In this document: piece after piece, positions 40,843 through 64,000 of the stretch
How positions within the stretch are numbered: the first letter of the stretch is position 1
How the letters are laid out: every line of letters begins with the position of its first letter
Assembly: GCA_000999095.1 (NCBI GenBank)
Contig: LCFP01000001.1
Location: forward strand, 138,230-202,229
From: Candidatus Gottesmanbacteria bacterium GW2011_GWA2_43_14
Lineage (GTDB): Bacteria > Patescibacteriota > Microgenomatia > 2-02-FULL-39-11
Length of the DNA: 64,000 nucleotides
Reading direction: 5' to 3'
Notes under the pieces: generated by a model
What the model was told of the DNA's origin: nothing
What the model saw: the letters and a program-made list of their open reading frames with translations, nothing else
Database searches by the model: none
Made by a program: the position numbers and the translations under genes

Positions 40843-41006
40843 TTTGATATAACTCTCATTTTATGAAATATCTCAAAGTAAAACCCGTTTTGCAAAGTAA
40901 AAAAATGGATATGTCTTACTCCGGTTTTGCTTAATTTGAAGCTAAATTCTGAAATCCCCTTTTTTTGTCAGTCGCCAAGCTTGATTGCTATCACAAAAAA
41001 ACGCGA

Positions 41007-48229: not shown

Positions 48230-49899
48230 ATCCTTCTGATAATTTTACACTTACTTGCTCCGTTCAACAAATCCTGATGGAAAAAAACACCTATCTTCGA
48301 TAGCGGAAAGCTTTTAAATTTTGCCAGGGTTTGGTACGGAAAGCTGAATAATCCGAAAAAGGGAGCGGATGATTTAAACCCTAAAAGTTTCTCTGGCGGC
48401 AGGTAAAGGCCGGCAAAATGACTCCCCTCGATTTTCGAATAAACCAATAAAGGTCTTACGGATGATTTCTTCCAGGTGTAGTAATCCAACAACAGGCGAT
48501 TGAAATAGCCCGTCCAAAAAGGCTGTTTATCCTCAAATTTCACAATCAACCTGCCGTTGTTCCTGATTCCGAACCTATCCAGGGTCAACCTGCCGGAGTT
48601 TTCCTTCTGCTGATAATCCAAATTAAATATATCTCCCTGCCTCTTAACGGAGGTAAAGATTATATCTTCAGCTATCAAAAGGGAATTATTGTCTGAAAGG
48701 TCATCCAGGCATGACGGCAGATATCGTTCCAATCGGGGTTCTCTGTCCGCGGTCAGCAGATCATTAAAAAAGAATGGCTGATATACTTTCAGGTCGCGAA
48801 TTTTTAAGACACCCTCTGAAAGCTCAAGATAAGCGCGGTATGCGGAAAAGTTAAACCACCAGCCGGCTGTTTTTTTCCCTTCGCGATCCAGTCCGTAAAC
48901 CACACTGGCAGGCTGATTTTCCCGGGAAAGACCTTTAAAAATCCCGGCGAATTGACGCATGGTGCTGAGTCTTATTTCTCCTTTGTCCCGGCGAAGCCGG
49001 AGCTCCGCAATTTGCCTGACGAATTCATCCAGGAATTCCCAACCTTCCTGTCCTGCCTCGAGCCCGACTGTTACCTGGTTTATCGGATTCAACTTGTCAA
49101 AATAGCTGTCCAAAAGAATCCGGAAATATGAAATAGATAAATTATGATGGTTTATATAATCATTTGCCTGAAAGCTGTATGTTGAGTCTCCGACAGTCAG
49201 GCCGTATCCTTTTATCGGGTCCCTGGCTGCCCATTGTATGGCGACCGGACCTGCCTTGTCTGTCCCGGCGGGAATTAACGGATTGTGTAAGGAGGAAATG
49301 TAAGGAATTCCCCAGGGTTTACCCCAAAGTCCGTATGTATCGGTCACATACTGGTCGGCAACCCCCAGAATCGCTGCCAAAGAATATTTGTTCTGAAGAT
49401 AATTGACGGTCACCGCATCCACATACCAGGCCCCTGCAGAAGACGGCAACTCGCCGAAGACTGATTTAAACCGGGTAACAAGACGGTCGGCCATTCTGAT
49501 TCTTTCATCCGGTTGGTAACCGGAAAAGAGAATCTGGTTGGCAGCCGCTTTATCAAAATCACCGAAATGGTATGATACCAGGCTGTCGTTTGCCAACTGC
49601 TGATCAACTTCCAGAAAAAGTCCCATTTCCGGCCTGTTTTTTAAACCATGTAGATAGTTTACAACTTCAGTGTCATTCAGATTGGCATATGTCAGAAGGA
49701 CCGTAGAGGGCAATTTTTCTTTATTGAGGTAATCCAGAATCTGCCTTGGTTTGGCAAAATCCTGCCAATATTCCCTGCCTCGAAAAGGGATTACGATAGT
49801 GGCAAAGTTTTGCGATGCGGCAAAAATATTCCCCGAATAAATCGGAGAAGAAAAAACGACAGTCAGCAGGATAAAAAAGAATAAAAGGATTCTTCTCAT
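48226..49899 (-). CDS. Secreted or extracytoplasmic protein of unknown function (557 aa)
   Basis: N-terminal signal peptide MRRILLFFFILLTVVFSSPIYSG. No motif I can assign. Location between GT2 genes and the flippase suggests a carbohydrate-active role. Confidence 0.45.
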   Translation of the reverse strand: MRRILLFFFILLTVVFSSPIYSGNIFAASQNFATIVIPFRGREYWQDFAKPRQILDYLNKEKLPSTVLLTYANLNDTEVVNYLHGLKNRPEMGLFLEVDQQLANDSLVSYHFGDFDKAAANQILFSGYQPDERIRMADRLVTRFKSVFGELPSSAGAWYVDAVTVNYLQNKYSLAAILGVADQYVTDTYGLWGKPWGIPYISSLHNPLIPAGTDKAGPVAIQWAARDPIKGYGLTVGDSTYSFQANDYINHHNLSISYFRILLDSYFDKLNPINQVTVGLEAGQEGWEFLDEFVRQIAELRLRRDKGEIRLSTMRQFAGIFKGLSRENQPASVVYGLDREGKKTAGWWFNFSAYRAYLELSEGVLKIRDLKVYQPFFFNDLLTADREPRLERYLPSCLDDLSDNNSLLIAEDIIFTSVKRQGDIFNLDYQQKENSGRLTLDRFGIRNNGRLIVKFEDKQPFWTGYFNRLLLDYYTWKKSSVRPLLVYSKIEGSHFAGLYLPPEKLLGFKSSAPFFGLFSFPYQTLAKFKSFPLSKIGVFFHQDLLNGASKCKIIRRI

Positions 49900-51341
49900 G
49901 CGGAAGATATTAATCGCGGCAGGTATGGTTTAATTTCCCTTTTAAGCCAAATCCAACTTAAAGTCAGATAAATTGCGCCTGAAATTAACAATAAAACAGC
50001 CAGGCTATAAATGTCCTTCGCAAGAGGCAGAGTCGCCAGTGCAAATAGAGCGGAGGCGGCGGTCATTAAAAACGGTTTCAGAATATTGGGCAATATTTTG
50101 AAATTAACTTCTTTTTTAAGCATGGAAACCGGCAGGAAAACAGTTAAAGAAATGGCTACGGAGGCATATGCCCAACCGTTAAAACCGTAAATGCGTGTCA
50201 AAAACGGCACCATAATCCAGGTCATGCCTGTCCAGATAACCATCAGAAACAGTGTTTTTTTTATGCCTCCTAGGGCATTCAGGGCATTTACCAGAGGAGA
50301 GGAAAAAGCAGCCAGAACTGAAGAAGCGCTGAAAAAATAAAAAGCGGTCAGAGCCTCATTCCATTTGGCATACCGGGGGACGATAAACATCAGTGGCCGG
50401 ATGTAAATCGCCAAAAAAACCGAAGCGGGCAGGATAAACAAGGCCAAAAACAACACTGCTTTTTCCAGGGCTTTTTTTAAAAGAATTTTATCGTTCTGGA
50501 TACGGGAAAACGCCGGAAAAGTCACCCTGATAACCGAATCCATTATCAGTCTCAAAGGAGTTTCCGCCCATTTCTTTGCCCAACCCAGGTAACCGACATG
50601 GGCAAAAGGCAGGACTTTACCCAAATACAAAGTTAAGAGGTCGTCCTTGACCAAAGCCAGAAGACTGTTTGTCTGGAATGGCAGGCCGAAAGTGATCAGG
50701 CTTTTTACCGCCCTATAGGAAAAACCCAAGCCGGGCATCCATGGCGATACAAAATAGATACTGACCAAGCCGACCAGACCCCTGAGGACCGCAGCCCAGG
50801 CAAAACTGGCTACTCCCATCCCCAAATAAGCCAATATGACCGCAGTCAGGTAAAAGGCAAGAGTTTCCAGGATTTGAGGTATAACCAGCCTGGAAAATTC
50901 CAGCTTCCTTTCCAGAAGTATTGAAGGTATGGTTTTTAAGGAAGAAAGGAAAAATGAAATTAAGAGGGCATTCAGTAAAAAAATCCCTTCATGGGAAAGC
51001 CTGTAAAATAAACTGATATAAGGCACCAGAAAATAGGCTGCCGCCAGAAGAGTGATGACAATTGCCTGCTGCAGGGTAAAAACGGAAACCAATTCGACTC
51101 TGCCCGGTTCCTCTTTTTTCTGGATCAGAGCTGCAGCCAACCCGATATCTGAAAAATAAGTTAAAAAGGAAATGACTGCCGAAACCACAAAAAAAACCCC
51201 GAAAACAGCCGGGGACAACAGTATGGTTAAGATGAAGGTAGCGGTGAAAGTAATTATCTGCAGCAGCATCGTCCTGCCGGTCATGGCCATGACACCTCTG
51301 ACTATTTTGCCCTTGATCACTGCACTGCCTGCCGAATCCAT
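49896..51341 (-). CDS. wzx: Wzx-like oligosaccharide flippase (MOP/PST family polysaccharide biosynthesis protein). Probable start is the internal MAMTGRT.
   Basis: LLSPAVFGVFFVVSAVISFLTYFSDIGLAAALIQKKE matches the PST-family N-terminal signature. About 12 TM helices, about 460 aa. Confidence 0.65.
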   Translation of the reverse strand: MDSAGSAVIKGKIVRGVMAMTGRTMLLQIITFTATFILTILLSPAVFGVFFVVSAVISFLTYFSDIGLAAALIQKKEEPGRVELVSVFTLQQAIVITLLAAAYFLVPYISLFYRLSHEGIFLLNALLISFFLSSLKTIPSILLERKLEFSRLVIPQILETLAFYLTAVILAYLGMGVASFAWAAVLRGLVGLVSIYFVSPWMPGLGFSYRAVKSLITFGLPFQTNSLLALVKDDLLTLYLGKVLPFAHVGYLGWAKKWAETPLRLIMDSVIRVTFPAFSRIQNDKILLKKALEKAVLFLALFILPASVFLAIYIRPLMFIVPRYAKWNEALTAFYFFSASSVLAAFSSPLVNALNALGGIKKTLFLMVIWTGMTWIMVPFLTRIYGFNGWAYASVAISLTVFLPVSMLKKEVNFKILPNILKPFLMTAASALFALATLPLAKDIYSLAVLLLISGAIYLTLSWIWLKREIKPYLPRLISSA

Positions 51342-51381: not shown

Positions 51382-52773
51382 TTATTCAGACAGGTAAAAT
51401 TTACCCAGGCCATGCAAAGAGTAGTCGGTGATAATATCGTTCCTGCTGAAAATATACTGTAAAGCGTCCTGGTCGTTTAAAGCTAATTTATATTCCGAAT
51501 AAGGTTTTACCGAAAAAATTACCTTCTCATCCGCACCGAACGATACCGATTTGGCTTTGTCAGTCAATATTTTAGAAATTCTCGCCCGCCTTGGAGCCCA
51601 GTGGATTTTACTGTTGAAGGCAACCAAAGCGCAGGCTGAAATAATGGAAGAGGCAACCACGGCAATTGTCATCACTTTCCTGATTAATAGCCTGCTCTGA
51701 AAATTTAAATAATTGTGGAATACTACCGTCAGCGACAACAGCAGCCCGGCCATGGGTATTATTAAATAGTAACTGAAGACATGCAGGGGGAAAAAAATAA
51801 CCGGGGCAAGTCCGATTAAAAACCAGCTCAGACCGAAGTAAAAAAACCGGATGGAAGTTGTGTTTTTATTTTTTAAAAGATGGACAAGCGGTAAAAAGTA
51901 AAACAGCAGAATGTTAACAGCTAAACTCAGGCAAAAAACAGCCACATACGGGGCAAATTCCCTGACGAAGCGGGGATTCAGAAGACCGAAACGGTAAAAC
52001 TGGCCCTGGATTTCTTCCGGCCAATTGTTGCTCCATAAAAAGTAATTCCGCAAAGAATAAGCGGTTTCGCGCGCCACTCCCAGGGAATAACTCTCAGTTA
52101 CGGGAGGCGGGAAGAATAAAAACCTGATGCCGACAAGTATGGCAACGGGGACAAAATACGGCAATAGGCGCCAATAACTGATTTTGTTGATAATAAATGA
52201 GTATGACAACAACATCAAAGGCAGTACCGCTGTCATTTCATTTGTGAACAGTCCCAGAATAAATGCCGTCAGCGACAAAAAATACCACACGGCCTTGCCT
52301 TCACTAAACCTCAGAAAAAAATAGAATGAGGAAAACAATAAAAGCGGCCCCAGGAAAAACGGCAGGGTGGAGCTCCAGTAGAAAACAGTATAATGAACCC
52401 CGGAAACCGCATAGAGAATGGCGGACAGACGGGCCGGAAAGACAGAGCCTCCCATTTTTTTTATAAGCAAATATATCATAACTGTATTGGCTGCGTGCAA
52501 AACGAAATTCAGCAACCTGAAAGGCAGCTGGTTCAGACCGAAAAATGACTGCAGAAGATAAAAAGGGATTTGCATGCCTAACGGTCTGTAATAGATGACA
52601 TCTCGTCTTGGGACAAAAAAAGCTGCAATTGCAGCAAGATCAGCTCCCCGGCTGATCTTCAGGGTAAACCAGTCGTCCTGGAAAAAATAGGACCCCAGTG
52701 ACTGGCGATAGATAACAAAGGAAATAAAAATTGCACCGGCCAACAGGATAAGTGACTTATAGTTGGATCTCAT
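51382..52773 (-). CDS. Polytopic membrane protein, candidate GT-C-like glycosyltransferase
   Basis: 463 aa, more than 10 helices. Acidic FFQDDWFTL motif right after TM1, the position of the DD/DE catalytic motif in GT-C enzymes. Confidence 0.4.
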   Translation of the reverse strand: MRSNYKSLILLAGAIFISFVIYRQSLGSYFFQDDWFTLKISRGADLAAIAAFFVPRRDVIYYRPLGMQIPFYLLQSFFGLNQLPFRLLNFVLHAANTVMIYLLIKKMGGSVFPARLSAILYAVSGVHYTVFYWSSTLPFFLGPLLLFSSFYFFLRFSEGKAVWYFLSLTAFILGLFTNEMTAVLPLMLLSYSFIINKISYWRLLPYFVPVAILVGIRFLFFPPPVTESYSLGVARETAYSLRNYFLWSNNWPEEIQGQFYRFGLLNPRFVREFAPYVAVFCLSLAVNILLFYFLPLVHLLKNKNTTSIRFFYFGLSWFLIGLAPVIFFPLHVFSYYLIIPMAGLLLSLTVVFHNYLNFQSRLLIRKVMTIAVVASSIISACALVAFNSKIHWAPRRARISKILTDKAKSVSFGADEKVIFSVKPYSEYKLALNDQDALQYIFSRNDIITDYSLHGLGKFYLSE

Positions 52774-52775
52774 GT

Positions 52776-53171
52776 CTATTTTTCAATTTCAGCTACAATT
52801 GTTTTGCCTCCCAAACCCCAGGAGTATCCGACAACCAGATACTCCACCTCTTTTTTACCGATCGCTTCCATCGTGTGAGGACTTTTTGCCGGTATCATGA
52901 CTGCATCCCCGGAACGGATAATTTCCGCCTCACCGTCGACCATAATCCTGGCCCGGCCCGAGGCAATTATAAATATTTCGATTAAATCTTCATGGTAATG
53001 CAGCCGGAATTTTTTGCCGGCCGGAATTCTCGCCCAATTGATCATTTGCGGCGACAAACCCTTGGGAAAATCCAGCTTTTCAAACAAGCGACGTCGGTAT
53101 GATCCCGGATTGTCTTCACTTTCATGGCTGGCCGGAACTTCCCTTATTTTGCTGCTTCTGATAATTATCAT
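52776..53171 (-). CDS. Cupin-2 domain protein
   Basis: HYHEDLIEIFIIASGRARIMVDGE ... GDAVMIPAKSPH, the two-His/Glu cupin motifs. Confidence 0.6.
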   Translation of the reverse strand: MIIIRSSKIREVPASHESEDNPGSYRRRLFEKLDFPKGLSPQMINWARIPAGKKFRLHYHEDLIEIFIIASGRARIMVDGEAEIIRSGDAVMIPAKSPHTMEAIGKKEVEYLVVGYSWGLGGKTIVAEIEK

Positions 53172-53212: not shown

Positions 53213-54382
53213 ATGACCAAGCTTAAATTTTCAATCGAAGCCACCGACGGCACTGCCAGGACCGGCAGCATCCGTACTGAGCATGGCATAATTGCCACCC
53301 CGGCTTTTGTTCCGGTAGGCACGGCAGCTTCGGTTAAATCCCTGACCCCGGATGAAATCGAAAATACGGGTCACCGTGTCTTTTTCGTTAATACCTACCA
53401 CATGATCTTCCGTCCCGGCCTGGAAACCGTAAAACACGCCGGCGGGCTTCACAAGTTTATGAACTGGCCGCATGTATTGATGACTGATTCCGGCGGATTC
53501 CAGGCATTTTCCCTTTCTGAAAACGGCCCCCGGGTTAAAGAAAACAGGGCAACGGAAAGATCCCTTGTCAAAATTACTGACCAGGGCATTGCTTTTAAAT
53601 CCGCCTGGGACGGCAGTCCGGTATTTTTGGGGCCCGGGGAATCAATGGCAGCACAGGGAATACTGGGTGCTGATCTGGTCATGGCTTTTGATGAATGCAC
53701 TTTTTATCCCATCAGCGAAAAAAGGGCCGGCCTGGCAATGGACAGGACCCATGCCTGGGCAAAAGTTTGCCTGGAATCCAGAAATCTTCTTAAGTCCCGG
53801 CAGTCGCTCTATGGTATTATCCAGGGATCCGTTTACAAACGATTAAGGATCAATTCAGCAAAATTTATGGCTTCATTGCCTTTTGACGGTTTGGCTATTG
53901 GCAGCGTCGCCAACAGCCGGGAACCTAGGGATAAAGTCTTTGCCGTCCTTGACTGGACCATGCCTCTTCTAAGTGAAACTGCCAAGCCTATACATTTCCT
54001 GGGTATAGGGGAAATCGAAGACATAATCCTGTCGGTCGAAAAAGGCATTGATTCATTGGATTGCATTACACCTACCAGGCTGGGAAGGATGGGCTGGCTG
54101 TTTACAAAAGAAGCCGGACTTAAAAATAAATTCCGCTATGATATAACACACAGGCAGTATGCGCGTGACCTGCAACCGCCGGATCCTTTATGCAAGTGCT
54201 ATGCCTGTCTCAATTTCAACCGCAGCTATCTTCACCACCTTTTTAAAAGCCGCGAACTTCTAGCCCTTCGTCTGGCAACAATGCATAACCTCTATTTTTT
54301 CGCGGACTTGATGGGGAAAATCAGACAATCAATAAGGGAACGGCACTTTTCAACGCTTAAAAAAGAGTGGCTGAATTATTAA
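53213..54382 (+). CDS. tgt: Queuine tRNA-ribosyltransferase (tRNA-guanine transglycosylase)
   Basis: TPAFVPVGTAASVK, LMTDSGGFQ, FDECT, C-terminal Zn site CKCYACLNF...HHL. 389 aa. Confidence 0.85.
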   Translation: MTKLKFSIEATDGTARTGSIRTEHGIIATPAFVPVGTAASVKSLTPDEIENTGHRVFFVNTYHMIFRPGLETVKHAGGLHKFMNWPHVLMTDSGGFQAFSLSENGPRVKENRATERSLVKITDQGIAFKSAWDGSPVFLGPGESMAAQGILGADLVMAFDECTFYPISEKRAGLAMDRTHAWAKVCLESRNLLKSRQSLYGIIQGSVYKRLRINSAKFMASLPFDGLAIGSVANSREPRDKVFAVLDWTMPLLSETAKPIHFLGIGEIEDIILSVEKGIDSLDCITPTRLGRMGWLFTKEAGLKNKFRYDITHRQYARDLQPPDPLCKCYACLNFNRSYLHHLFKSRELLALRLATMHNLYFFADLMGKIRQSIRERHFSTLKKEWLNY

Positions 54383-55090
54383 CCGGAAGTAAAGCCTTAA
54401 ATACAATTCAAGATAGCTTCTGGTCATTTTATAAAGTTTAAAATTGGAAACACCTTTGACCCGGTTGGTGTAAACGGTCGGCACTTCTCCCAGCTTAAAA
54501 CCCGCCAGATAAGCTTTGATGGCAAACTCCGGCGAAATGCTGAAACCCGGTTCCTCAAGTATGATTTTTCCCATTATATTTTTTTTGAATCCCCTGAAGG
54601 CATTTGTTATGTCATGGACCGGTACCCGGAAAAAGATTCTGGCCAGTTTGGTTCCGGAAGAAGATAAATAAGCTTTTAGGGGATCGAGATTCCCGCGGCT
54701 GCCTCCGGGCATATATCGTGATCCGAAAACCAAATCATAACCCCGGCTGATTTTTTTAATGATTTCCGCATATGTTTCCGGATCATCGGCCATATCGCCC
54801 ATTGTCCAGATAATAACCTCTCCGCGAGCTTTATCTGTGCCTGCCAGCAAGGCCAAACCCATGGTATTACCGTTCTCCATATTGTCTTTTTTGCGGAATA
54901 TAGGCCTGATATGCTTATTTGCCATAGACATGTCTCTGAGGATGGCGGCTGTGCGGTCGCTGCTTCGGTCATCAACCGGGATAATCTCAAAATTTAATTT
55001 CCGGCTATTGGCAAAAGTTAAAACATTTTCCAGCATCTGCCGGCAATTTTTTTCTTCGTTGTGGAAAGGGATGATAAAGGAAACGGTCAT
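54350..55090 (-). CDS. GT2 polyprenyl-phosphate sugar synthase (DPM1/GtrB-like)
   Basis: VSFIIPFHNEEKN, IIPVDDRSSDRT, VFGSRYMPGG, DITNAFRGF, SISPEF, GEVPTVYTNRVKGVSNF. 3' end overlaps tgt convergently by 33 nt. Confidence 0.7.
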   Translation of the reverse strand: MTVSFIIPFHNEEKNCRQMLENVLTFANSRKLNFEIIPVDDRSSDRTAAILRDMSMANKHIRPIFRKKDNMENGNTMGLALLAGTDKARGEVIIWTMGDMADDPETYAEIIKKISRGYDLVFGSRYMPGGSRGNLDPLKAYLSSSGTKLARIFFRVPVHDITNAFRGFKKNIMGKIILEEPGFSISPEFAIKAYLAGFKLGEVPTVYTNRVKGVSNFKLYKMTRSYLELYLRLYFRLIIQPLFFKR

Positions 55091-56208
55091 CTTAAACCAT
55101 GCTCTTCCAATTCATACATTGCCTTTTCTACTAGGTCGACTGCTTTTTCATTCTTTCCCCATTCTATGACTTCCGCCAAACCCTGCTCCAGGGATATCTT
55201 CGGCGACCAGCCCAATAGCCTGTTTATTTTGCCCGTATCGGCAAAACAGTGCCTGACATCCAGTTTCCTGACTTTGCCGCTTATTTCCGGTTTTAAATCT
55301 GCCCGGAAAAGTCTGATCAAAATTTCCGCGACTTCCAATATAGTCGTCGGGCGGCCGCTGCCGACATTAAAAACCTGGTAATCGGCTGCGCTTATTTCAA
55401 GAGAGCTTCGGCAGGCTGCTACCACATCCCGGATATGGATAAAATCCCGGGTTTGTCCGCCGTCTTCGTTTATGAGAGGCGCCTTGCCGTTTTTAATCCG
55501 GCTTATGAAAATGGCAGCCACGCCGTTGTACGGATTGGACAGGCTTTGCCTTGGACCATAGACATTGAAAAAACGCAAAGCAACTGCCGGTATGTTGTAG
55601 GCGGCGCCTATATTGAGCACCATTTCCTCTTGATTTTTTTTGCTGATGGCATAAATGGAATTTGAATTCTGTTTGGCTTCCTCGTCCGTGGCGACGGGTT
55701 TAACCGGTTTACGGCATTTCGGACAAAAATTCCGGAAATCCTTTTTTTTCAATTGCTCTTCGCTTCTCAAGGGAGGCCTGACCTGACCGCAGTCATGGCA
55801 ATGGTAACTGCCTTCCCCGTAGGAACTCATGGAAGCAGCCACCAGCATTTTTTTAACCGTATGTTTTCCGTTGGCCAATATATCCAGCAGAATGGCGGTG
55901 CCGGTTGAGTTGACATGCACATAACGCTCTATTTCATACATGCTCTGCCCGACCCCGACAGCCGAGGCGAAATGGACGACTGCCTCAACACCGGCAAGGG
56001 CTTTTAGCCAATCGGCCCGCCTGACAACATCGCCCCGCATAAATTCCGCTTTCGGATTAAAATAGTCCGGCAGGCGGCCGGAAGGATGGATCTGTTTATC
56101 GAGACTGTCCAAAACCCTTACCTCGTATCCGCCGGAAATAAGGCCGTCTACCAGGTGGGAACCGATAAATCCGGCACCTCCCGTAACCAGTATTTTTTTA
56201 AATTTCAT
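55087..56208 (-). CDS. NAD-dependent epimerase/dehydratase (extended SDR) with an inserted 4-Cys zinc-ribbon. Start placed at the internal MKFKKILV.
   Basis: ILVTGGAGFIGSHL, ASMSSYG then CHDCG-x21-CPKCR insertion before YAISK (YxxxK). The ORF-track N-terminal extension (MAARRPES...) overlaps the upstream gene and is rejected. The ATG at 56208 gives an ATGA overlap with the upstream stop. Confidence 0.65.
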   Translation of the reverse strand: MKFKKILVTGGAGFIGSHLVDGLISGGYEVRVLDSLDKQIHPSGRLPDYFNPKAEFMRGDVVRRADWLKALAGVEAVVHFASAVGVGQSMYEIERYVHVNSTGTAILLDILANGKHTVKKMLVAASMSSYGEGSYHCHDCGQVRPPLRSEEQLKKKDFRNFCPKCRKPVKPVATDEEAKQNSNSIYAISKKNQEEMVLNIGAAYNIPAVALRFFNVYGPRQSLSNPYNGVAAIFISRIKNGKAPLINEDGGQTRDFIHIRDVVAACRSSLEISAADYQVFNVGSGRPTTILEVAEILIRLFRADLKPEISGKVRKLDVRHCFADTGKINRLLGWSPKISLEQGLAEVIEWGKNEKAVDLVEKAMYELEEHGLR

Positions 56209-57224
56209 ATAAATATATCTTTGTTGTTCTTTACCCAGCGGTAAAGTTTCCCTACCCCTTCCTCTACGCTTACCTCCGGTTTCCAGCCTAAAGTTTTTTC
56301 TGCCTTGCGGATATCGCTGATATATACTTTCTGGTCGCCGGGCCGCCAATTGTCGTATTTGACTTTGATTTTTTTACCGTATAGATCTTCCAGCATGGGA
56401 CCGAATTTGCTCCAGACAGACAGAAGATTTTTCGATCCTCCGCCGACATTAAAAACTTTCCCGCGTGCCCTATCTATCTTCCTGACTGTCGTTTCAAACA
56501 GTCTAACCAGATCTGTTATATATAAAATATCCCTTACCTGTTTTCCGTCACCGTAAATGGTTATCGGCTTTCCGAGAAGGACGGCTATAATGAACCAGGC
56601 AACCCAGCCCTGGTCTTCAACACCGAACTGGCGGGGGCCGTAAATGCAGGATTGGCGGAAGACTACCGTTGGTAAATCATAGATGCGGGAATAGTCATGC
56701 ATATACTGGTCGGCCGCACCTTTGGAACACCCGTAGGGGGAATGGAAATCCAGATTGAATTCTTCGGAGATGCCATTGGGATAATCTGCATACAGATAAC
56801 CGTCTTTTTTTTCGATTATTTTTAAGTTTTCCATCCCGCCGTACACTTTATTTGTCGAGGCATAAATGATAATCGGTTTGATTTTATTTTTTCTGACCGC
56901 TTCCAGTAAATTGAAAGTTCCGGCCATATTTATGTCAAAATCAGTCCGGGGATCTTCAACAGAGGTCGTTACCGCCACCTGCCCTGCCAAATGGAAAATA
57001 ATATCCCTGCCCCGGACGGCTTTATTCAATATTTCCGGCTGCCTGATATCACCGTTGATGAATTCCACCGATCCCGTCCCTTTCAGCCAGTCCAAATTTA
57101 CCCGGCTGCCCTGCCTTGAAAGGTTATCCAATACAGCTACCCGGTATTTTTTTTTGAGGAAGTAAGCTGCCAGATTAGAACCGATAAAACCGGCACCGCC
57201 GGTGATTAATAGTCTGTTATTCAT
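56205..57224 (-). CDS. NAD-dependent sugar epimerase, CDP-paratose/tyvelose 2-epimerase-like extended SDR
   Basis: LLITGGAGFIGSNL, YASTNKVYG, SPYGCSKGAADQY, EDQGWVAWFIIA (DQGWVAHF-like motif of the CDP-tyvelose epimerase clade). Confidence 0.6.
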   Translation of the reverse strand: MNNRLLITGGAGFIGSNLAAYFLKKKYRVAVLDNLSRQGSRVNLDWLKGTGSVEFINGDIRQPEILNKAVRGRDIIFHLAGQVAVTTSVEDPRTDFDINMAGTFNLLEAVRKNKIKPIIIYASTNKVYGGMENLKIIEKKDGYLYADYPNGISEEFNLDFHSPYGCSKGAADQYMHDYSRIYDLPTVVFRQSCIYGPRQFGVEDQGWVAWFIIAVLLGKPITIYGDGKQVRDILYITDLVRLFETTVRKIDRARGKVFNVGGGSKNLLSVWSKFGPMLEDLYGKKIKVKYDNWRPGDQKVYISDIRKAEKTLGWKPEVSVEEGVGKLYRWVKNNKDIFI

Positions 57225-57958
57225 TTTGCTCTCAGTTTAAGCCACGGCTTCTGCCAAAAAAGCCTCCACAGTCCCTCCAAATCTCCATAGACAGTCCGTA
57301 GCACCCTGACTGTCGAACCCGGATTATCCGTCCAGATCACAGGAATCTGTTTTACGCGGTAACCCATTTTTTCCCCTACAATCAAAAGCTCACTGTCGAA
57401 AAACCAGGCATTATCTTCAAGATGCGGTATCAGGTTGTCTGCCAGTTTCCTGGTTATCCCCTTGAATCCGCATTGGGCGTCGGAAAAACCGACACCGAAA
57501 AAAATCCTGATCAGAATATTGTAAACCCTGGAGAGGATTTCCCTTTTTATTGTCCTGCCGACGACTTTTGATTCCGGCAGCAGCCTGGAACCAATCGCTA
57601 TATCATAGCCGTTCTCCAAGGAGGACACAAGAGTATTTAAGGCCGATAAATCAGTGGACAAATCAACATCCATATAGCATAAAATGGCAGCCCGGCTTTT
57701 TAACCAGGCCTTTTTTACCGCCCGGCCTCTTCCCTTTTTATCCAGATGCAGGACTCCAACATTATCCAGTTCCCGGCTTAATTTTTCGGCAATTGTTAAA
57801 CTCCTGTCTGTTGAAGCGTTGTCGGCAATGGTAATATGCCAATCGCGACCTTGCAGGTGCACTTTAAGGAAACGGCAGAGGCGATTAACGGAATCTGTCA
57901 GCTCTTCTTCCTCATTAAAAATAGGAATGACTATTTCGAGATCGGTTTTTTTAGCCAT
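57221..57958 (-). CDS. GT2 polyprenyl-phosphate sugar synthase (DPM1-like)
   Basis: EIVIPIFNEEEEL, ITIADNASTDRS, GRGRAVKKAW, IGSRL, SDAQCGFKG, FFDSEL, QIPVIWTD. Confidence 0.7.
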   Translation of the reverse strand: MAKKTDLEIVIPIFNEEEELTDSVNRLCRFLKVHLQGRDWHITIADNASTDRSLTIAEKLSRELDNVGVLHLDKKGRGRAVKKAWLKSRAAILCYMDVDLSTDLSALNTLVSSLENGYDIAIGSRLLPESKVVGRTIKREILSRVYNILIRIFFGVGFSDAQCGFKGITRKLADNLIPHLEDNAWFFDSELLIVGEKMGYRVKQIPVIWTDNPGSTVRVLRTVYGDLEGLWRLFWQKPWLKLRAK

Positions 57959-59622
57959 AATTTAGTTGAATATCCGGATGATAAATATAGTAGCAAACAC
58001 AGAGATAAAAAGGAAACGCTATTTGACACCTTTCTGACCGGAGTGTCCTTAAGTCTGAATTCGATGAGTTTTTTGCCTGACGGCACTTCAAATGACAATT
58101 TGCCCTCTATTTTGGCGGCCGGCACTTTATTACTATCGACCGAAACATTCCAACCCGGAAAAAAGGGTAGACTTGTTACCAGCCGGCCTCCTGCACCTTC
58201 CACCATATATATTTTATGTTCAGCCGTATCCTTGACTGATACTGCCTGTTGGCCGACAAGACCGCTGAATGGCGTGCGGTAAACTTCCTCTGCAGAAGAA
58301 GGCCTGGGAAAATCTTCCGGTAAATATTCATCGGATATTAAAGATGAGTTAAACCGCAAATTTTCAGTGTTGAGAAATTCATCCGCTTCGGGGTAGTACA
58401 GCGTTTGCGGCAGGAAATATTTAGGATAAAATATCAGACTGGCGGAAATTATGACCGCCGATAAAAATAAACTGTAATGCTTTGAAGTAAACCTGAACAG
58501 GCCGGTTACCAGAATTACCGAAAAAAGCAGGATGAAATTCAAAAAACGCCAGGGATATTGGATAAAAGTAAAACCGGGTATCATCCGGTAGACGGACGCG
58601 GACATCTCCAGGGTCATCAAAACACATATAATCAAAAAAACAAGGCTGATTAAATAAAAAAACTTGAGGCTGTTTTTCATTTTTTTACTTATGTAAACGC
58701 CTGTCAGGAGAATGATTGAGGCCAGCGTTAATAATATGTGCCATTTACCAATTTTAAATGACATGCCGTCGGCAAGACCCGGCCCTGACCCGGCAAAACC
58801 CCAGGCAGAATCCCATAATTGTCCGGGGGTTACAAAATGCTGCTCAAAATTACTCCCCTCAGTCTTAAGTTTGTCTACAGAAGTATAAGCCTGTTCCGCA
58901 AAAGCGGGAAAGATAAAAAAAGCCGATAAACCAACACCCAAAACAACCATCATTAAATATTTTTTTAAATCATGTTTCGAAAAATACATAATCGGCAGTA
59001 AAAGAAGGGACACTGCCGAAATGATTAGCCCGCTGATATTATGACTTAAAAAAATCCCCGCCAGCCCGACACTGCCCAGAAGAAATCCCCGTCTCTTTTT
59101 TGCGGCCTGTTCTGCCATACACCAATAGATGCCCAGAAAAAAGAGGGGCAGGAAGGCATAGGCATAGTATTCACCGACAGCCCCCCTGACATAGATATTG
59201 ACGGCATGATAAGGAGCATACAGGTAAAGAATAGCGGCTGCTATTCCGGCCACCCTTCCTGACAGAGACGCCGCCAAAAAATACATCAAAAGGGGCGCCA
59301 ACAATGCCCCGGCAAGATACATCAAATTAGTAGCAGTAAACAGGTCAAACCCCGACAAGTAAAATAATGCTCCCGTATAGTAAGGCAACGGAGCATAAAA
59401 ATTGAACAACGGATAACCGTAACCATAACCTAAATTTCCGACCATACGGACCGGAAACTGGCCTGACTTTAATTGCTCCGCCATCTCAAAAACACGAGCC
59501 TGCTGTGTTTTGTCATGGACCGGAAAAACAGCACTGCCGGTCAGGTGGCTGACAGCAGGATAAGAAAATAACAAAAGCAACAGAATGACCGGCAGGTGTT
59601 TCCTAATTAATGGAATCATCAT
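57931..59622 (-). CDS. Polytopic membrane protein, PTPS-related-domain/YfhO-like putative GT-C (paralog B). Start at the internal MMIPLIRK.
   Basis: VFPVHDKTQQARVFEMAEQLKSGQFPVRMVGNLGYGYGYPLFNFYAPLPYY, then about 12 TM helices and a C-terminal domain. The ORF-track start at 59688 overlaps the upstream gene. Confidence 0.5.
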   Translation of the reverse strand: MMIPLIRKHLPVILLLLLFSYPAVSHLTGSAVFPVHDKTQQARVFEMAEQLKSGQFPVRMVGNLGYGYGYPLFNFYAPLPYYTGALFYLSGFDLFTATNLMYLAGALLAPLLMYFLAASLSGRVAGIAAAILYLYAPYHAVNIYVRGAVGEYYAYAFLPLFFLGIYWCMAEQAAKKRRGFLLGSVGLAGIFLSHNISGLIISAVSLLLLPIMYFSKHDLKKYLMMVVLGVGLSAFFIFPAFAEQAYTSVDKLKTEGSNFEQHFVTPGQLWDSAWGFAGSGPGLADGMSFKIGKWHILLTLASIILLTGVYISKKMKNSLKFFYLISLVFLIICVLMTLEMSASVYRMIPGFTFIQYPWRFLNFILLFSVILVTGLFRFTSKHYSLFLSAVIISASLIFYPKYFLPQTLYYPEADEFLNTENLRFNSSLISDEYLPEDFPRPSSAEEVYRTPFSGLVGQQAVSVKDTAEHKIYMVEGAGGRLVTSLPFFPGWNVSVDSNKVPAAKIEGKLSFEVPSGKKLIEFRLKDTPVRKVSNSVSFLSLCLLLYLSSGYSTKLWLKKPISK

Positions 59623-61210
59623 GCTTTTTTCTGATAAAAATATAAACGCAATAGAATAAAGCTGACAAAGACACGATGTCTGCCGCAAACCGCACCGGAG
59701 TCTCAGTAAAATTTGCCTCTATCTGGTGCCGGCCATGCCCGAAATCTGCCTCGATAATTCCGAAGTCATTATTATATCTAAATGTCATTGGCTTGCCGTT
59801 ATCCGCCAGCTGCCAACCCGGGAAAAAAATTGTATTCAAACGGACAGTTCCCGGTGTGACTGCCTGAATAGTGAATTTTGCCTTACGGGAATTATAATTC
59901 AGGTCCGAAATCTCAGCATCGCCCGTCACAATCTCAGCTTTTCGCAAATAACGGTTTTCGGGTTTACGGCTTACATAAACCGGCATCAGTTCATCAGCTG
60001 AAGTTGTGGTGGCATCATTGGTCAAATAATAATCATCGCTTTTATTTATCGGATTGTTAATTCCGGTTAAGGGCAAAATAGACATAAAACCAATTAATAT
60101 TAGGAGGCTGCCGGCGTAGACAGCCTGTTTCTTATAAAATAAAAAAACTGACGCTAAGGCAACAATAAAGCACAATATGCCTCCCATCCTCCAGGGAAAA
60201 TCAATGGAGGACAAAAGAGGCAATTGCCAGACAAGCCGGGAAGAGGAGTGAAGCAGAAAAACCGTCAAAGGCACAGAGAGCAAAAAGAAAACTGCGGACT
60301 GAATTTTTGCACGGTTTTTAATTAAAAGGATGACAGACAGGATCAAAACAGACGTCTGTTGGGCAGTCAAGCCGAAAGACGGTAAGCCTACCCTTGGCGT
60401 GGCCATGAATATTTCACCCAAGCTGAGAAAATGTGATGACTTGTCAGCCAAAGGCATTATCGAAAGCAGGATGTATTTTCTTTCATGAAGGGCAGGGACA
60501 ATAAAAAAGGCAGCCAAGGCAAAAGACAGAATTACAGGAAATAAAATCAGCTTCAGCTTATTCGGCAAAACACTTTTTACATCTTTAAAAACAGTTATAA
60601 GCCACAAGAACCAAAACGGGGAAAAAAGCAGGGATAAGACATTATGGGTTAAGAGCAGTGACGCTAGAGACAATGAAAGAAGGACTCCCCTTTTTAGACC
60701 GGTCTTCTCCCTGTATACAAGGGTCAGATAAAATATCAGAGGGAAAAGGCTTAAAGCCAAAGATTCCCCGAGCGAGCCCCTGACATAAAGGTCAGTCAGG
60801 CGGTAAGGAACGGTCATATAAAAAAAAGCAGCCATCATGCCCGCCCAATTTCCTTTTATTTTGGCGGCTAATAAGAACATAAAATAGCCGGACATAAAAA
60901 CACTCAGGACAAAAAGCAATTTAATGATTTCAGTAAAGTCGGCCCCGGTCAGGCGGATTAAACTGCCGAGATAAAAGGGCAAAGGGTAAGTAAATGAAAA
61001 CAGCGGGTAACCGTAACCGTGGTTTAAATAATCAGACCATCGCGGCGGAATCTGCAGATCTTTGAGCTCCCTGACCATTTCTGCTAAACGCACAATTGCC
61101 CATTCGCCGTCATCGGTCGCAAAAAAACCCGGCCTGGAAAAAGGCAGTATCAGAAGGGTTGCCGCCAAAATGAGGATTAATCCGCAAAAATACGGCAGCA
61201 ACTTTTTCAT
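59603..61210 (-). CDS. Polytopic membrane protein, PTPS-related-domain/YfhO-like putative GT-C (paralog C)
   Basis: FFATDDGEWAIVRLAEMVRELKDLQIPPRWSDYLNHGYGYPLFSFTYPLPFY. Confidence 0.5.
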   Translation of the reverse strand: MKKLLPYFCGLILILAATLLILPFSRPGFFATDDGEWAIVRLAEMVRELKDLQIPPRWSDYLNHGYGYPLFSFTYPLPFYLGSLIRLTGADFTEIIKLLFVLSVFMSGYFMFLLAAKIKGNWAGMMAAFFYMTVPYRLTDLYVRGSLGESLALSLFPLIFYLTLVYREKTGLKRGVLLSLSLASLLLTHNVLSLLFSPFWFLWLITVFKDVKSVLPNKLKLILFPVILSFALAAFFIVPALHERKYILLSIMPLADKSSHFLSLGEIFMATPRVGLPSFGLTAQQTSVLILSVILLIKNRAKIQSAVFFLLSVPLTVFLLHSSSRLVWQLPLLSSIDFPWRMGGILCFIVALASVFLFYKKQAVYAGSLLILIGFMSILPLTGINNPINKSDDYYLTNDATTTSADELMPVYVSRKPENRYLRKAEIVTGDAEISDLNYNSRKAKFTIQAVTPGTVRLNTIFFPGWQLADNGKPMTFRYNNDFGIIEADFGHGRHQIEANFTETPVRFAADIVSLSALFYCVYIFIRKKHDDSIN

Positions 61211-62691
61211 AACTCGGGCACAGGCTTTATCCGGAAAAAGTAGAGATAACTGTCGCCAGTACCCCTTCGGATTCTGAATATCAATTCAGCCGGCCAGTCG
61301 TCAGAAAGCTTCTGTGAATCTTTAAGGACAAGATAAGTCGGTTTTTCGGAAGCAAATCCGATCAGTTCCTCTTTACCGCTGTCCACCGGCCAATAACCTT
61401 TAATGGTGATATTTTCATTTTGCTTAAGATAGATTTCATAAACCGCAGGATTTAAACCGAAAGTGCCTTCAGTTGCCAAAACGATCTCCTTCCCCGCAGC
61501 TTCTTTTTCAATAAATGAAATCACCTGGTTTACTCCGTATCCTGAAGGCCAGTCGTTCAACAGTTGGTTACGGTCACTGTCCGGTATCCTGGCTTCAAGT
61601 GGCCTGAAACTCACCAGATAGGAGTTTATGACCAATGGAGCCAGCACTACGGCTGGAACCAGGTATAAATATTTTGCTTTATCACGCGCAAATGAAGTCA
61701 TTCCGGACAAAAAATCAGCTGCAACCAGATAAAAAGGCACAGTCATAAAAAGGAGAAACCTGGGAAACAGCACTTTGCCGAAGGCGGCTAAAGAAAGGAA
61801 GGGAATTATAAACCAAAGTAATAAATATGGGATACGCCGGTCTTTTCTGATTAAGGCCAAAATTAATGCGATTAATATGACTGATATAAACGGCCAGGAA
61901 AAATATGAAAGGAGCATCTGTGTCAAACCGTTCAAATTCGGACGCAGTACCGAAAACGGCCGGTCAAGAAAATCACTCAAGGTATAGATAAAAGAATAGT
62001 TTTTTTGTTCAATAATATAGAAAAAAGGCGACAATCTGAGAGAATTATATATAATATGCGCAAGCAAAATACTCAATAGTGAAAGCCCGCTCCATTTTAA
62101 CAGTGATTTAAAATTATTTTTTCTTTGCCAGTTGAACAGCAAGAGGGAAAAAGGCATCAGATATATAAAGAAAAAAGCGGAAGATTTTGTCAGCAAACCC
62201 AAGCCGATAACCATACCTAACAAAAGCGCTATATCCAACTGCCGTTTTTTCACCAGCAATACTTCCAGATAGAGTGACCAGACAGCCAATGACAACAGTA
62301 GGGAATCCATTAACGCCAGCCTGTCATAGACAAGAGCAAAAGGCGTAAATAAATAAATCAAGCCGGTCCATACCGCCGTTCGGCGGTTAAACAGATGCAA
62401 AGCCAAAAGATACAATCCGGCGGCAGACAAAACCCCTGATAGTACGGATACCATCCTTCCGGCAATAAGCGGATCTTCCATTATTTTCAGAAAGGGATAC
62501 ATCGCCCAGGTCATCAATGGCTGTTTGCCGTCCGTCAGGGAAATAAAACGGTGAGCAGGATCATTTAAACCGATTTGCGCCCACCTGATGTAGATTGCTT
62601 CATCGGTAAAAATAGGTATTTTCGTCAGATTGAGAGTACGGCTGGCAAAAACAGACAGGCAGATAATAAAAATCAGTAAAAAGTCTCTCAT
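61207..62691 (-). CDS. GT-C glycosyltransferase, ArnT/GT83-GT39-like
   Basis: IPIFTDEAIYIRWAQ (DE motif first loop), GKQPLMTW, LLTKSSAFFF. 494 aa, mostly transmembrane. Confidence 0.55.
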   Translation of the reverse strand: MRDFLLIFIICLSVFASRTLNLTKIPIFTDEAIYIRWAQIGLNDPAHRFISLTDGKQPLMTWAMYPFLKIMEDPLIAGRMVSVLSGVLSAAGLYLLALHLFNRRTAVWTGLIYLFTPFALVYDRLALMDSLLLSLAVWSLYLEVLLVKKRQLDIALLLGMVIGLGLLTKSSAFFFIYLMPFSLLLFNWQRKNNFKSLLKWSGLSLLSILLAHIIYNSLRLSPFFYIIEQKNYSFIYTLSDFLDRPFSVLRPNLNGLTQMLLSYFSWPFISVILIALILALIRKDRRIPYLLLWFIIPFLSLAAFGKVLFPRFLLFMTVPFYLVAADFLSGMTSFARDKAKYLYLVPAVVLAPLVINSYLVSFRPLEARIPDSDRNQLLNDWPSGYGVNQVISFIEKEAAGKEIVLATEGTFGLNPAVYEIYLKQNENITIKGYWPVDSGKEELIGFASEKPTYLVLKDSQKLSDDWPAELIFRIRRGTGDSYLYFFRIKPVPEL

Positions 62692-62715
62692 GAAACATAC
62701 AAATTATAGCAGATA

Positions 62716-63873
62716 TCAGCTTTTAATCAGATTTTTTGAAACAAGATAAAGTGAAGCGAGAACGAGCGGGACCAACAGGAAAATGTCTGCGGTTTTAGCC
62801 GTCAGCTCGGTATAGGTGCCGGAATAAAGGTATGGAAGGTAGCGCAAGAGAACCGCCCAGGATAAAACAGCTGTCAGATTTCTGATTTGTGGCTGATGTA
62901 TCAAAGAAACAATGCCGATTACAGTCAGAAAATACCAGGGATAGGCTTCCCTCAATGAAATTAAATATATGATCATAATTCCGACGGAAGCCAAAACCAG
63001 ATAAAGAAATTTCTCCCTGGATTCTCTGATCTTTTTGGGTGGGAACAAAACCAGAGGAATGACTACAGTTGTTAAATATTTAACCAAGGCGGACAGGGAA
63101 AGGAAAATCAGTGACCCTTTTATTCTTTTTTGAAAGTAATAATAAAAAAATATCAGCAGGAAAAACAGCATCATGGATTCGTTGTGCGGACTGACCAGGC
63201 TTTCAATAATCACCAATGGACTTAAAGCAAAATAGAGCATGTTTTCTCTGGCGGTTTTTACCCCGTCAGATAGACTAATTCTGCCGATAAGATATGTATT
63301 GCCCAAATACAGGAGAAAAAACATCAGCTTAAAACCTGCCATAGTCAGGACAAAAATTTGCCTGCCCAAATAGGAAACCGCTATGGAAACCATAAGCCAA
63401 ACCGGGCCATATGGGTACGTCCTGTGTGTCCAGTGCATGAATCTTGTCCATAAATCATCCGGAAAATCCAAAGCAGTATATAAATAAGGATTAAGATGGT
63501 ATTTGGTTACAATCCGCGCATCGAACAGATAGTTGAAGAAATCATGGGAAAAAGCAGGATAGGCAATGGCACCTGTTGCCCCGGTCACAACCAATAGAAG
63601 CAGTAGTTGGCGGCCGCTAAGCGGAAATTTTTCAGTCAGGAAAAGCCAGTATTTTTGCATGAAGAATAAACAGACTGTCAGCAGGAAAAATATCAGGGCA
63701 GATACAGGCCTGCGGAAATAGCCCAGGACGATCATCAGATTCTGGAAGGATTGGTAGGCAGAATTACCTGACAGGGTCAAATTCAGGTCTATCTGGGAAT
63801 AACTGTATACCGAAAGCAATATCAGAACAAGAAACGAGCCCGTGAGTAAGCCGGCATAAATTTTTTTAGGCAT
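62716..63873 (-). CDS. GT-C mannosyltransferase-like, GT87/DUF2029 (PimE-like)
   Basis: AFSHDFFNYLFDARIVTKYHLNPY resembles the GT87 FSxDxxRYxWDGR...GxNPY first-loop motif. 385 aa, about 10 TM helices. Confidence 0.5.
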   Translation of the reverse strand: MPKKIYAGLLTGSFLVLILLSVYSYSQIDLNLTLSGNSAYQSFQNLMIVLGYFRRPVSALIFFLLTVCLFFMQKYWLFLTEKFPLSGRQLLLLLVVTGATGAIAYPAFSHDFFNYLFDARIVTKYHLNPYLYTALDFPDDLWTRFMHWTHRTYPYGPVWLMVSIAVSYLGRQIFVLTMAGFKLMFFLLYLGNTYLIGRISLSDGVKTARENMLYFALSPLVIIESLVSPHNESMMLFFLLIFFYYYFQKRIKGSLIFLSLSALVKYLTTVVIPLVLFPPKKIRESREKFLYLVLASVGIMIIYLISLREAYPWYFLTVIGIVSLIHQPQIRNLTAVLSWAVLLRYLPYLYSGTYTELTAKTADIFLLVPLVLASLYLVSKNLIKS

Positions 63874-64000
63874 CGTATTTGCCCAGAGAGCTGTTAAACT
63901 TTATCCTCAAAAGATCATAGAGGCTTTCCAGCGAGTCTTTGACGGGGTTTACATTGCGGGTTTCCTGGTAATGCCACTCAATGGGTACTTCAGCTATGCG
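63874..64000 (-). CDS. Partial (N-terminus beyond window end) GT2 polyprenyl-phosphate sugar synthase, C-terminal fragment
   Basis: Minus-strand translation ...RIAEVPIEWHYQETRNVNPVKDSLESLYDLLRIKFNSSLGKYDA* ends with TAA in an 8-nt overlap (ATGCCTAA) with the 62716..63873 start. The EVPIxWxxR motif is the DPM1/GtrB C-terminal signature. Confidence 0.5.

Follow-up and report, generated by a model that had tools for sequence, protein, structure and literature searches.

Polyprenyl-phosphate sugar synthase-like genes interleaved with GT-C glycosyltransferase genes in a Gottesmanbacteria operon suggest parallel transmembrane glycosylation pathways

Why would a bacterium with a small genome keep three GT2 glycosyltransferases, two sugar-nucleotide epimerase-like enzymes and four polytopic glycosyltransferase candidates packed into one run of genes? 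The question is raised by positions 54350-64000 of a stretch of contig LCFP01000001.1 from Candidatus Gottesmanbacteria bacterium GW2011_GWA2_43_14; the whole 64-kb stretch is called the window below. Nine close-packed genes, all on the minus strand, occupy this block and are labelled G1 to G9 by rising coordinate. The operon to which they belong probably encodes several parallel multi-component transmembrane glycosylation pathways, in which GT2 enzymes would load single sugars onto a lipid carrier inside the cell and membrane-embedded glycosyltransferases of the GT-C type would use them outside.

By rising coordinate, the block holds a 246-residue GT2 that is its final gene (G1, 54350-55090; PF00535, 80.8 bits) and two extended short-chain dehydrogenase/reductases (SDRs), one of epimerase type with 373 residues (G2, 55087-56208; PF01370 and PF16363, each matched in two stretches) and one TyvE-like with 339 residues (G3, 56205-57224; PF16363, 188.7 bits). 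A second GT2, of 245 residues, follows (G4, 57221-57958; PF00535, 80.3 bits). Next stand the PTPS_related GT-C G5 (57931-59622, 562-563 residues; PF10131, 43.1 bits against a cut-off of 26.4) and its GT-C paralogue G6 (59603-61210, 535 residues; PF10131, 24.4 bits, below that cut-off), the ArnT/PMT-like PMT_2 GT-C G7 (61207-62691, 494 residues; PF13231, 66.1 bits, and PF02366, 35 bits) and the MptA_B/GT87-like GT-C G8 (62716-63873, 385 residues; a precomputed PF26314 match and no match in our local Pfam copy). The window closes on the C-terminal 44 codons of a third GT2, G9 (63866-64000), whose full gene encodes 252 residues and matches PF00535 with 91.3 bits. General profile searches used the local Pfam copy and equivalog searches used NCBIfam; the hidden Markov model (HMM) E-values across the block run from 1e-11 to 1e-112, far beyond chance. 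A first-pass annotation of this DNA had given exactly this order.

The packing is as telling as the content. Overlaps of four nucleotides occur at G7/G6, G4/G3, G3/G2 and G2/G1, and larger ones at G6/G5 and G5/G4; the stop codon of G9 (63866-63868) lies within an 8-nucleotide overlap with the start of G8, and a gap of 24 nucleotides separates G8 from G7. Two starts in the program-made list of open reading frames were corrected: G2 begins at ATG 56208 and not at TTG 56349, all its orthologues having 373-374 residues, and G5 begins at ATG 59622/59619 and not at TTG 59688, in agreement with the gene call on the source contig. Internal sites resembling promoters or terminators occur no more often than in shuffled sequence, and Rfam returned zero matches for RNA elements. 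The overlaps, together with the lack of any promoter or terminator excess, fit one long transcription unit, and the block is most likely the distal half of a single long operon. The earlier statement that the cluster runs past the window end was right, as the source scaffold carries further glycosylation genes upstream of G9.

The argument for lipid-linked donors begins with the three GT2s, which the first-pass annotation had called DPM1-like. Their best solved relatives agree with that name. For G1 these are PfDPMS (the dolichol-phosphate mannose synthase of Pyrococcus, 5mlz; 1e-19, over residues 1-228 of 246), GtrB (5ekp; 1.5e-14) and ArnC; for G4, PfDPMS (2.8e-13) and ArnC (7e-11); and for G9, PfDPMS (2e-11), ArnC and GtrB, the ArnC structures matched being 9bhc, 8vxh and 9hwj. 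Every above-threshold solved relative of G1 and G4 is a polyprenyl-phosphate glycosyltransferase save the last on each list, and so are the six top distinct sequences for G9, below which chondroitin and heparosan synthases rank. Across the six synthase-type GT2s of the locus, the GT-A core residues are invariant, including the second Asp of the DxD motif. Sequence identity is 22-24% among G1, G4 and G9, and 22-28% when they are set against the remaining synthase-type GT2s of the locus, which rules out recent duplication; near-identical copies, the finding that the first-pass annotation had said would count against it, were looked for and are absent. We also compared 80 related loci, one per species of Microgenomates, spanning Gottesmanbacteria, Chisholmbacteria, Levybacteria, Woesebacteria, Collierbacteria and other Patescibacteria, with reading frames labelled by their best phmmer match to the proteins of this locus. 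Median identity there is 47-62% within the G1, G4 and G9 orthogroups and 24-28% between them, and each orthogroup has its own DxD-region signature: TD[MFL]DQATP in G9 (D-L-D in this genome), MDVDLSTD in G4 (D-V-D, conserved in orthologues) and TMGD[LM][AS]D[DE]P in G1. The low identity and the separately maintained orthogroups with their own signatures fit distinct donors, so that the earlier suggestion of several lipid-linked donors gains support at the level of sequence. The same comparisons support G1, G4 and G9 as old paralogues resembling polyprenyl-phosphate sugar synthases of the DPM1/GtrB/ArnC kind.

If the GT2s load the carrier, the block should also hold enzymes that use the loaded sugar, and all four GT-C candidates obtained a family or fold assignment; the first-pass annotation had named failure here as a finding against it. 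The assignment is firm for G5 and G7, from Pfam cut-offs, and for G6, from its predicted model; for G8 it is adequate, from PF26314, the MptA and MptB HMMs and the best fold matches by probability. G5 and G7 each have about ten hydrophobic segments. G5 is 28.6% identical to G6 (BLASTP 1e-37) and 29% identical to a third PTPS-like paralogue at 21704-23323, to which G6 is homologous as well (1e-54), and most G6 homologues bear PF10131. The AlphaFold2 model of G6 (pLDDT 90.6, pTM 0.92) returned only GT-C proteins as its top 29 Foldseek matches, 27 of them at a probability of at least 0.99; AftD is the best (8.5e-06), and the others include STT3 (human and yeast), PglB, AglB, ArnT, AftA and EmbA/B/C, with a probability of 1.0 for AftD, STT3, PglB and ArnT. 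Asp34 in the first loop of G6 is invariant. In the model, residues 420-501 form a putative extracytoplasmic beta-sandwich, followed by the last transmembrane (TM) helix, and this sandwich matches accessory domains of glycoside hydrolases in Foldseek, a likeness that hints at a carbohydrate acceptor. G7 has T-D-E at residues 29-31, after TM1, and the [ST]DE motif recurs in 57 of 63 orthologues; from sequence alone, no solved relative of G7 was detected. G8 and all 120 of its listed homologues carry a precomputed match to PF26314 (MptA_B_family), and three of the 120 also match PF09594/GT87. G8 further matches the MptA model TIGR03459 (E 1.6e-12; 47 bits, the cut-off being 439) and the MptB model NF038066 (35.9 bits, under the cut-off of 40). 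Its AlphaFold2 model has a pLDDT of 92.3, and Asp111 and Asp118, in the first loop region, are invariant.

Are these synthases and transferases tied to each other, or only neighbours in one genome? The first-pass annotation had proposed a co-occurrence check, and the 80 loci provide it. Of the 75 loci with sequence upstream of the G8 homologue, 70 have a G9-like GT2 as its immediate same-strand neighbour there, and the two frames overlap in 59 of 72 adjacent pairs. A G7-like gene directly follows G8 in 43 loci, and G6 is followed by G5 in 38. Where sequence downstream of G5 is available (34 loci), the next gene is a synthase-type GT2 in 24 (G4-like in 19, and like the GT2 at 18071-18751 in 5). 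A GT2-GtrA fusion followed by PMT_2 was found in 37 cases. The G3-G2 pair is confined to 15 loci, all Gottesmanbacteria-like; G1 also occurs in 15 loci and directly follows G3-G2 where Gottesmanbacteria-like loci extend far enough, and some loci (L008, L037 and L038) have G3-G2-G1 but no G4. The locus is modular: two synthase/GT-C units, G9-G8-G7 and G6-G5-G4, are old and widely conserved, and G3-G2-G1 is a Gottesmanbacteria-specific, donor-making add-on without a GT-C of its own. The earlier proposal that each donor is paired with dedicated GT-Cs thus holds for the conserved adjacencies of G9 with G8, of G5 with a GT2 and of GT2-GtrA with PMT_2, but not as a one-to-one scheme: the median locus (up to 21 kb) has five GT-Cs and two synthase-type GT2s, and G1 is tied to the epimerases. 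Many of the records that bear such loci are titled "uncultured Gammaproteobacteria" or "Pseudomonadales" (L017, L019 and L020 among them), one is titled Pacearchaeota and one Bathyarchaeia; on Microgenomates-type loci, these off-lineage titles look like placeholder names or binning errors.

The route that we infer from these families would start at the cytoplasmic face, where G9, G4 and G1 would each load polyprenyl (undecaprenyl) phosphate with a single sugar residue taken from a nucleotide sugar. The lipid-linked sugars would then be flipped, the candidates for this step being the Wzx-like protein encoded at 49896-51341 and the GtrA domain of a GT2 fusion encoded upstream. Outside the membrane, the polytopic G8, G7, G6 and G5 would pass the flipped sugars to an envelope glycopolymer. 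The likeliest acceptor would be the polysaccharide attributable to the Wzx/ABC-2 transporter and GT2/GT4 genes of the window, with surface proteins as the alternative. G3 and G2, as cytoplasmic NAD-dependent epimerases, may convert a common nucleotide hexose into epimers feeding G4, G1 or both, and the G3-G2-G1 add-on would in this way enlarge the donor repertoire. The upstream rmlACBD, Ugd and UXS genes, judged by their families, would supply nucleotide sugars to the operon.

Several observations weigh against this scheme of parallel pathways. No GtrA-type flippase gene is present in 54350-64000. GT-Cs outnumber synthases, so that any assignment of a given donor to a given transferase is a guess, and one synthase, G1, has no adjacent GT-C partner. 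G1 has also lost the first Asp of its DxD motif, which reads M-G-D in this genome (window 54780-54810), and of 17 G1 orthologues the motif scan matched 7, all with G-D or A-D at this place. G1, G4 and G9 are without a predicted TM segment, G1 thus being soluble or peripheral by prediction. None of the GT2s reaches an NCBIfam equivalog cut-off, the best scores being 46-64 bits against cut-offs of 325-529 (PgfS, ArnC and AglJ), and sugar specificity therefore cannot be read from GT2 sequence. The Foldseek matches of the G8 model are weak, with ALG9 (probability 0.99) and PimE 9dm5 (0.97) at E-values above 0.1 and TM-scores of at most 0.38, and the G8 family profile found no solved relative among all PDB sequences, returning only a spurious ND6 match. 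Finally, the 80 loci were retrieved through the G8 family, and their adjacency counts are conditional on the presence of G8.

Among the alternatives, the best survivor keeps the same machinery and gives it a larger task, the building of a whole lipoglycan or heteropolysaccharide outside the membrane, with G8 starting or lengthening a backbone and G7, G6 and G5 adding branches of other lipid-linked sugars. In the assembly of mycobacterial lipomannan and lipoarabinomannan, Ppm1 makes polyprenyl-P-mannose, and PimE, MptB, MptA and MptC extend the chain. The G9-G8-G7 triad, almost invariant across Microgenomates, has the same family make-up as that polyprenyl-phosphomannose pathway (Ppm1, PimE, MptA/B/C and Pmt; GT87/MptA_B and GT39), and G8, itself in the MptA_B family and with one homologue named MptB by PGAP, shares the invariant Asp residues in the first loop region. 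The window contains 13 GT-C genes, seven of them tandem PMT_2 paralogues, which seems beyond the needs of decoration, and G6 adds its carbohydrate-binding-like beta-sandwich and AftD as its top fold match. However, G8 scores below the MptB cut-off and, at 385 residues, falls well short of the 553 positions of the MptB profile. The host lies outside Actinobacteria, and no phosphatidylinositol mannoside-like or other lipid-anchor genes were recognised. The window also has a complete cytoplasmic set of GT2/GT4, Wzx-like and ABC-2 genes, which fits a conventional backbone that is then decorated. Construction of the entire polymer outside the membrane is a reading that we regard as possible and rather unlikely.

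A different acceptor altogether is proposed if the GT-Cs are protein glycosyltransferases that use polyprenyl-P-sugars for the O-glycosylation of S-layer proteins, pilins or other secreted proteins. PMT enzymes glycosylate proteins in eukaryotes and in actinobacteria, and both G7 and its tandem paralogues match PMT/PMT_2, families of protein O-mannosyltransferases. STT3, PglB and AglB are likewise among the best fold matches of G6. On the other side, the locus is set among polysaccharide genes (rml, ugd, Wzx and ABC-2), the block offers no candidate gene for an acceptor protein, and the C-terminal domain of G6 resembles accessory beta-sandwiches of glycoside hydrolases. PMT_2 is also a wide family that takes in ArnT and the GtlB type, which glycosylates lipoteichoic and wall teichoic acids (PMC8035078). 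Protein glycosylation is in our judgement improbable as the main role of these GT-Cs.

The GT2s could instead be ordinary cytoplasmic elongators of an undecaprenyl-PP repeat unit, with the GT-C-like proteins acting as polymerases or ligases or being non-catalytic. PF00535 is a very broad family, and the lack of TM segments and of any equivalog hit would suit such enzymes. Yet synthases without TM segments are established, human DPM1 and PpgS being two. GacI is another, a cytoplasmic GT-A enzyme working with the separate membrane protein GacJ (PMC8035078). More directly, the top solved relatives of G1, G4 and G9 are polyprenyl-P glycosyltransferases, and the tight, conserved coupling of GT2 to GT-C with overlapping stop and start codons is a hallmark of synthase/GT-C pairs. 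We consider ordinary elongation very unlikely, and parallel transmembrane glycosylation remains the preferred account of the synthase/GT-C units.

What sugar, then, might the Gottesmanbacteria-specific add-on provide? G3 aligns over its full length with CDP-tyvelose 2-epimerases, both TaTyvE 9RL0 (1.7e-112) and Salmonella TyvE 1ORR (1.4e-99). It shares the hairpin insertion of that family and keeps the catalytic Thr/Asn/Tyr/Lys, with the motifs STNKVYG and YGCSK conserved. Members of the family also act on glucose nucleotides: 9RL0, from Thermodesulfatator, is reported to turn CDP-glucose into CDP-mannose (PMC13098431, PMC7851689) and interconverts the two (PMC13098431), and Salmonella TyvE, one of a panel of 27 TyvE candidates, was the enzyme selected for making GDP-mannose from GDP-glucose in vitro (PMC12188384). 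Tyr203 of TaTyvE closes over and contacts the cytosine (PMC13098431); G3 has Glu at the equivalent position, as do all 14 full-scoring orthologues. G3 is also set between DPM1-like synthases and not in a CDP-hexose neighbourhood. Across 74 kb (the window plus 10 kb upstream), there are no genes for a cytidylyltransferase, CDP-glucose 4,6-dehydratase, E1/E3 or paratose synthase (rfbF/G/H/I/S), and the sole nucleotidyltransferase is RmlA-like. The idea that G3 is a true CDP-tyvelose 2-epimerase and that one donor is a CDP-pathway 3,6-dideoxyhexose (tyvelose or paratose), which the first-pass annotation had favoured along with some other epimerised hexose, has the Salmonella alignment and the intact catalytic residues behind it, but the lack of that pathway in the 74 kb, together with the Glu at the cytosine position, leads us to reject it as barely credible. 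The second half of that earlier suggestion, another epimerised hexose, stands as plausible. A 4,6-dehydratase identity was likewise rejected for G3 and for G2, both of which are without the TDE motif, G3 having the T-N-K of TyvE and G2 an S..Y..K set. From its sequence, we propose that G3 epimerises C2 of a common nucleotide hexose, perhaps a non-CDP one; within the scheme above, it would turn Glc into Man by inversion at C2, the nucleotide carrier probably not being CDP, and G2 would provide a second epimer.

The best solved relatives of G2 are the 4-epimerases 6wjb, 4zrm and 6dnt, and Ser126, Tyr186 and Lys190 are invariant. Between the catalytic Ser and YxxxK lies an insertion of about 30 residues with a CxxC...CxxC pattern, a Zn-ribbon-like hairpin that splits the PF01370 match (approximately residues 134-184; window 55600-55800). 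It occupies the position of the beta-hairpin of TyvE (described in PMC13098431); the C-terminal tail of G2 is conserved, as are the four Cys in aligned homologues. A survey of the 150 best 50%-identity cluster representatives found a long insertion in 143, with four Cys in 63, three in 43 (mostly with His at the second site) and none in 37. The insertion is thus widespread and not peculiar to Gottesmanbacteria. Two Gottesmanbacteria orthologues (L011 and L025) have lost one Cys or all four. Given these losses among G2 homologues, the putative metal site looks structural. JGI calls several G2 homologues "dTDP-L-rhamnose 4-epimerase", a lead in view of the rmlACBD genes upstream. A literature search on Zn-ribbon SDR epimerases, incomplete in coverage, found nothing relevant.

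The part of the operon beyond the window was read from a 291-kb groundwater-metagenome scaffold that is identical to the window over 11,285 nucleotides with 0 mismatches; G8 equals the protein with locus tag UV73_C0001G0187 of Candidatus Gottesmanbacteria bacterium GW2011_GWA2. On the same strand upstream of G9 lie rmlA, rmlC, rmlB and rmlD, in this order, and then further sugar-nucleotide and glycosyltransferase genes. These are, all on the minus strand, a UDP-glucose 6-dehydrogenase (Ugd), an Rmd/GMD-like SDR (2pk3, 8e-85), a UDP-glucuronate decarboxylase of UXS type (2b69, human UXS1, 6e-101), a 380-residue GT2 fused to a GtrA/DPMS TM domain (about 2.1-3.2 kb past the window end; best NCBIfam match ArnC, 65.9 bits) and, after this fusion, a 495-residue PMT_2 GT-C. 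The set occupies 3379-9260 of the scaffold locus (L001), 0.6-6.5 kb past window position 64000. Its logic is that of ArnA/ArnC/ArnT, with Ugd, a UDP-glucuronate decarboxylase, an ArnC-like GT2 and an ArnT/PMT_2 GT-C. It differs in having no aminotransferase, formyltransferase or deformylase, in its UXS-type decarboxylase and in the fusion of the GT2 to GtrA/DPMS TM segments. Ugd-UXS-GT2/GtrA-PMT_2, Arn-like without the amino and formyl steps, is by sequence a candidate pathway for polyprenyl-P-xylose or another pentose.

The rest of the window is rich in related genes. The seven tandem PMT_2 paralogues (26483-38834, minus strand) are 27-37% identical to each other; YfhO is encoded at 42364-44640, two more synthase-type GT2s at 23327-24085 and 18071-18751, and an ABC-2 exporter pair at 12731-14789. 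The Wzx-like flippase already mentioned is of the Polysacc_synt_3 family, and many GT2/GT4 genes and a set of fucose-branch genes are also present. After the PMT_2 array (23327-38834, minus strand) come a GalE-like SDR (25544-26467), an amine-oxidase-type flavoprotein (24082-25569; PF01593 and PF13450) and the GT2 at 23327-24085; an SDR and a flavoenzyme beside a lipid-sugar synthase-type GT2 recall, by analogy, donor remodelling of the DprE1/DprE2 or mutase type. The fucose branch (4161-5093, 8462-9304 and 15980-16933) comprises GT10-like and GT11-like fucosyltransferase candidates and a GDP-L-fucose synthase-like SDR, whose score of 283.7 bits falls short of its cut-off. With the GMD/Rmd-like SDR and G3 added, this branch resembles an engineered GDP-Glc to GDP-Man to GDP-Fuc cascade (PMC12188384). 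Next to G1, a convergent tRNA-guanine transglycosylase gene (53213-54382, plus strand) stands between G1 and a cupin of 131 residues (52776-53171, minus strand); it is absent from this place in L007, L015, L017, L018 and L021, where the gene next after G1 is the cupin. A weak match of this cupin to the C-terminal domain of phosphomannose isomerase (PF01050, 25.8 bits) may connect it with the supply of mannose. Unrelated genes interrupt the island at 38847-41510 and encode an RNase T exonuclease-GIY-YIG fusion, a SET-domain protein and an NYN-domain protein. Five open reading frames of 286-557 residues (48226-49899, 51382-52773, 5108-6592, 18761-19891 and 36286-37146) had no local-Pfam match, and the L007 orthologue of 51382-52773 weakly matches PF19528 (GT_STM0557_N); all five may be further membrane glycosylation parts, such as polymerases or ligases.

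How much of this is new? Systems that combine a GT-A synthase, a flippase and a GT-C are established (PMC11127046, PMC8035078). Examples are GtrA/GtrB/Gtr* of Shigella and Salmonella phages, CsbB-GtcA-YfhO and GtlA-GtcA-GtlB of Bacillus and Listeria, GacI/J/K/L of Streptococcus pyogenes, and CsdAB/CD/EF with CflA of Lactococcus (PMC8035078). The Gottesmanbacteria locus shares with these systems a DPM1/GtrB-type GT2 beside polytopic GT-Cs (PMT_2 and YfhO-like), a rhamnose/polysaccharide cluster setting with Wzx- and ABC-type exporters, several pairs per genome, and one GT-C with an extracytoplasmic sugar-binding-like domain. It differs in gathering at least four synthase and at least five GT-C orthogroups in one operon, with GT-Cs in excess, and in a block that has no stand-alone GtrA and whose synthases have no TM anchors, in a small-genome host of the Candidate Phyla Radiation (CPR). 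PTPS_related and MptA_B-like enzymes are not among the GT-Cs noted in the review of these systems (PMC8035078). A second comparison is offered by the pentofuranose system of Citrobacter youngae O1/O2 (GT136), in which the choice of sugar falls to a single SDR epimerase and the GT-C bears a carbohydrate-binding module (PMC11127046). That system likewise has a lipid-linked donor synthase, a MOP/MATE-type flippase and a GT-C, and its binding module parallels the beta-sandwich of G6. Unlike the Gottesmanbacteria enzymes, however, its synthase is not a GT2 and is of the polyprenyl-phosphoribose type, dependent on phosphoribosyl pyrophosphate; its sugars are pentofuranoses, and it forms a single module.

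The kind of system is thus known, and what sets this locus apart is how many modules are chained in one conserved operon, the presence of PTPS_related and MptA_B-like GT-Cs outside Actinobacteria, synthases without TM segments, a TyvE-like enzyme without CDP-dideoxyhexose synthesis, and the CPR host. Nothing relevant turned up in a literature search on glycosylation or GT-C arrays in the CPR and on PF10131, which, with coverage incomplete, is weak evidence of novelty. The furthest-reaching proposal compatible with the locus would be that Microgenomates build much of their envelope heteroglycan outside the membrane, with GT-Cs drawing on at least four polyprenyl-phosphate monosaccharides. Some of these donors would be new to bacteria, namely polyprenyl-P-xylose or another pentose, and a hexose or 6-deoxyhexose epimerised by G3/G2 and loaded by G4/G1; G3 would natively be a non-CDP NDP-glucose/mannose 2-epimerase, and G2 would represent a new class of epimerase. 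We put this forward tentatively and would sooner expect it to fail than to hold in full.

CPR bacteria (Patescibacteria) have very small genomes, and hardly anything of their envelope biology has been characterised. That such an organism has kept an operon of some twenty genes, and 13 GT-Cs within 64 kb, suggests that a surface glycan is central to its lifestyle, which is possibly episymbiotic. G9-G8-G7, G6-G5-G4, G3-G2-G1 and Ugd-UXS-GT2/GtrA-PMT_2 are concrete enzyme modules, and they could reveal new lipid-linked donors, a role for TyvE-like enzymes outside dideoxyhexose synthesis, and the functions of PTPS_related GT-Cs.

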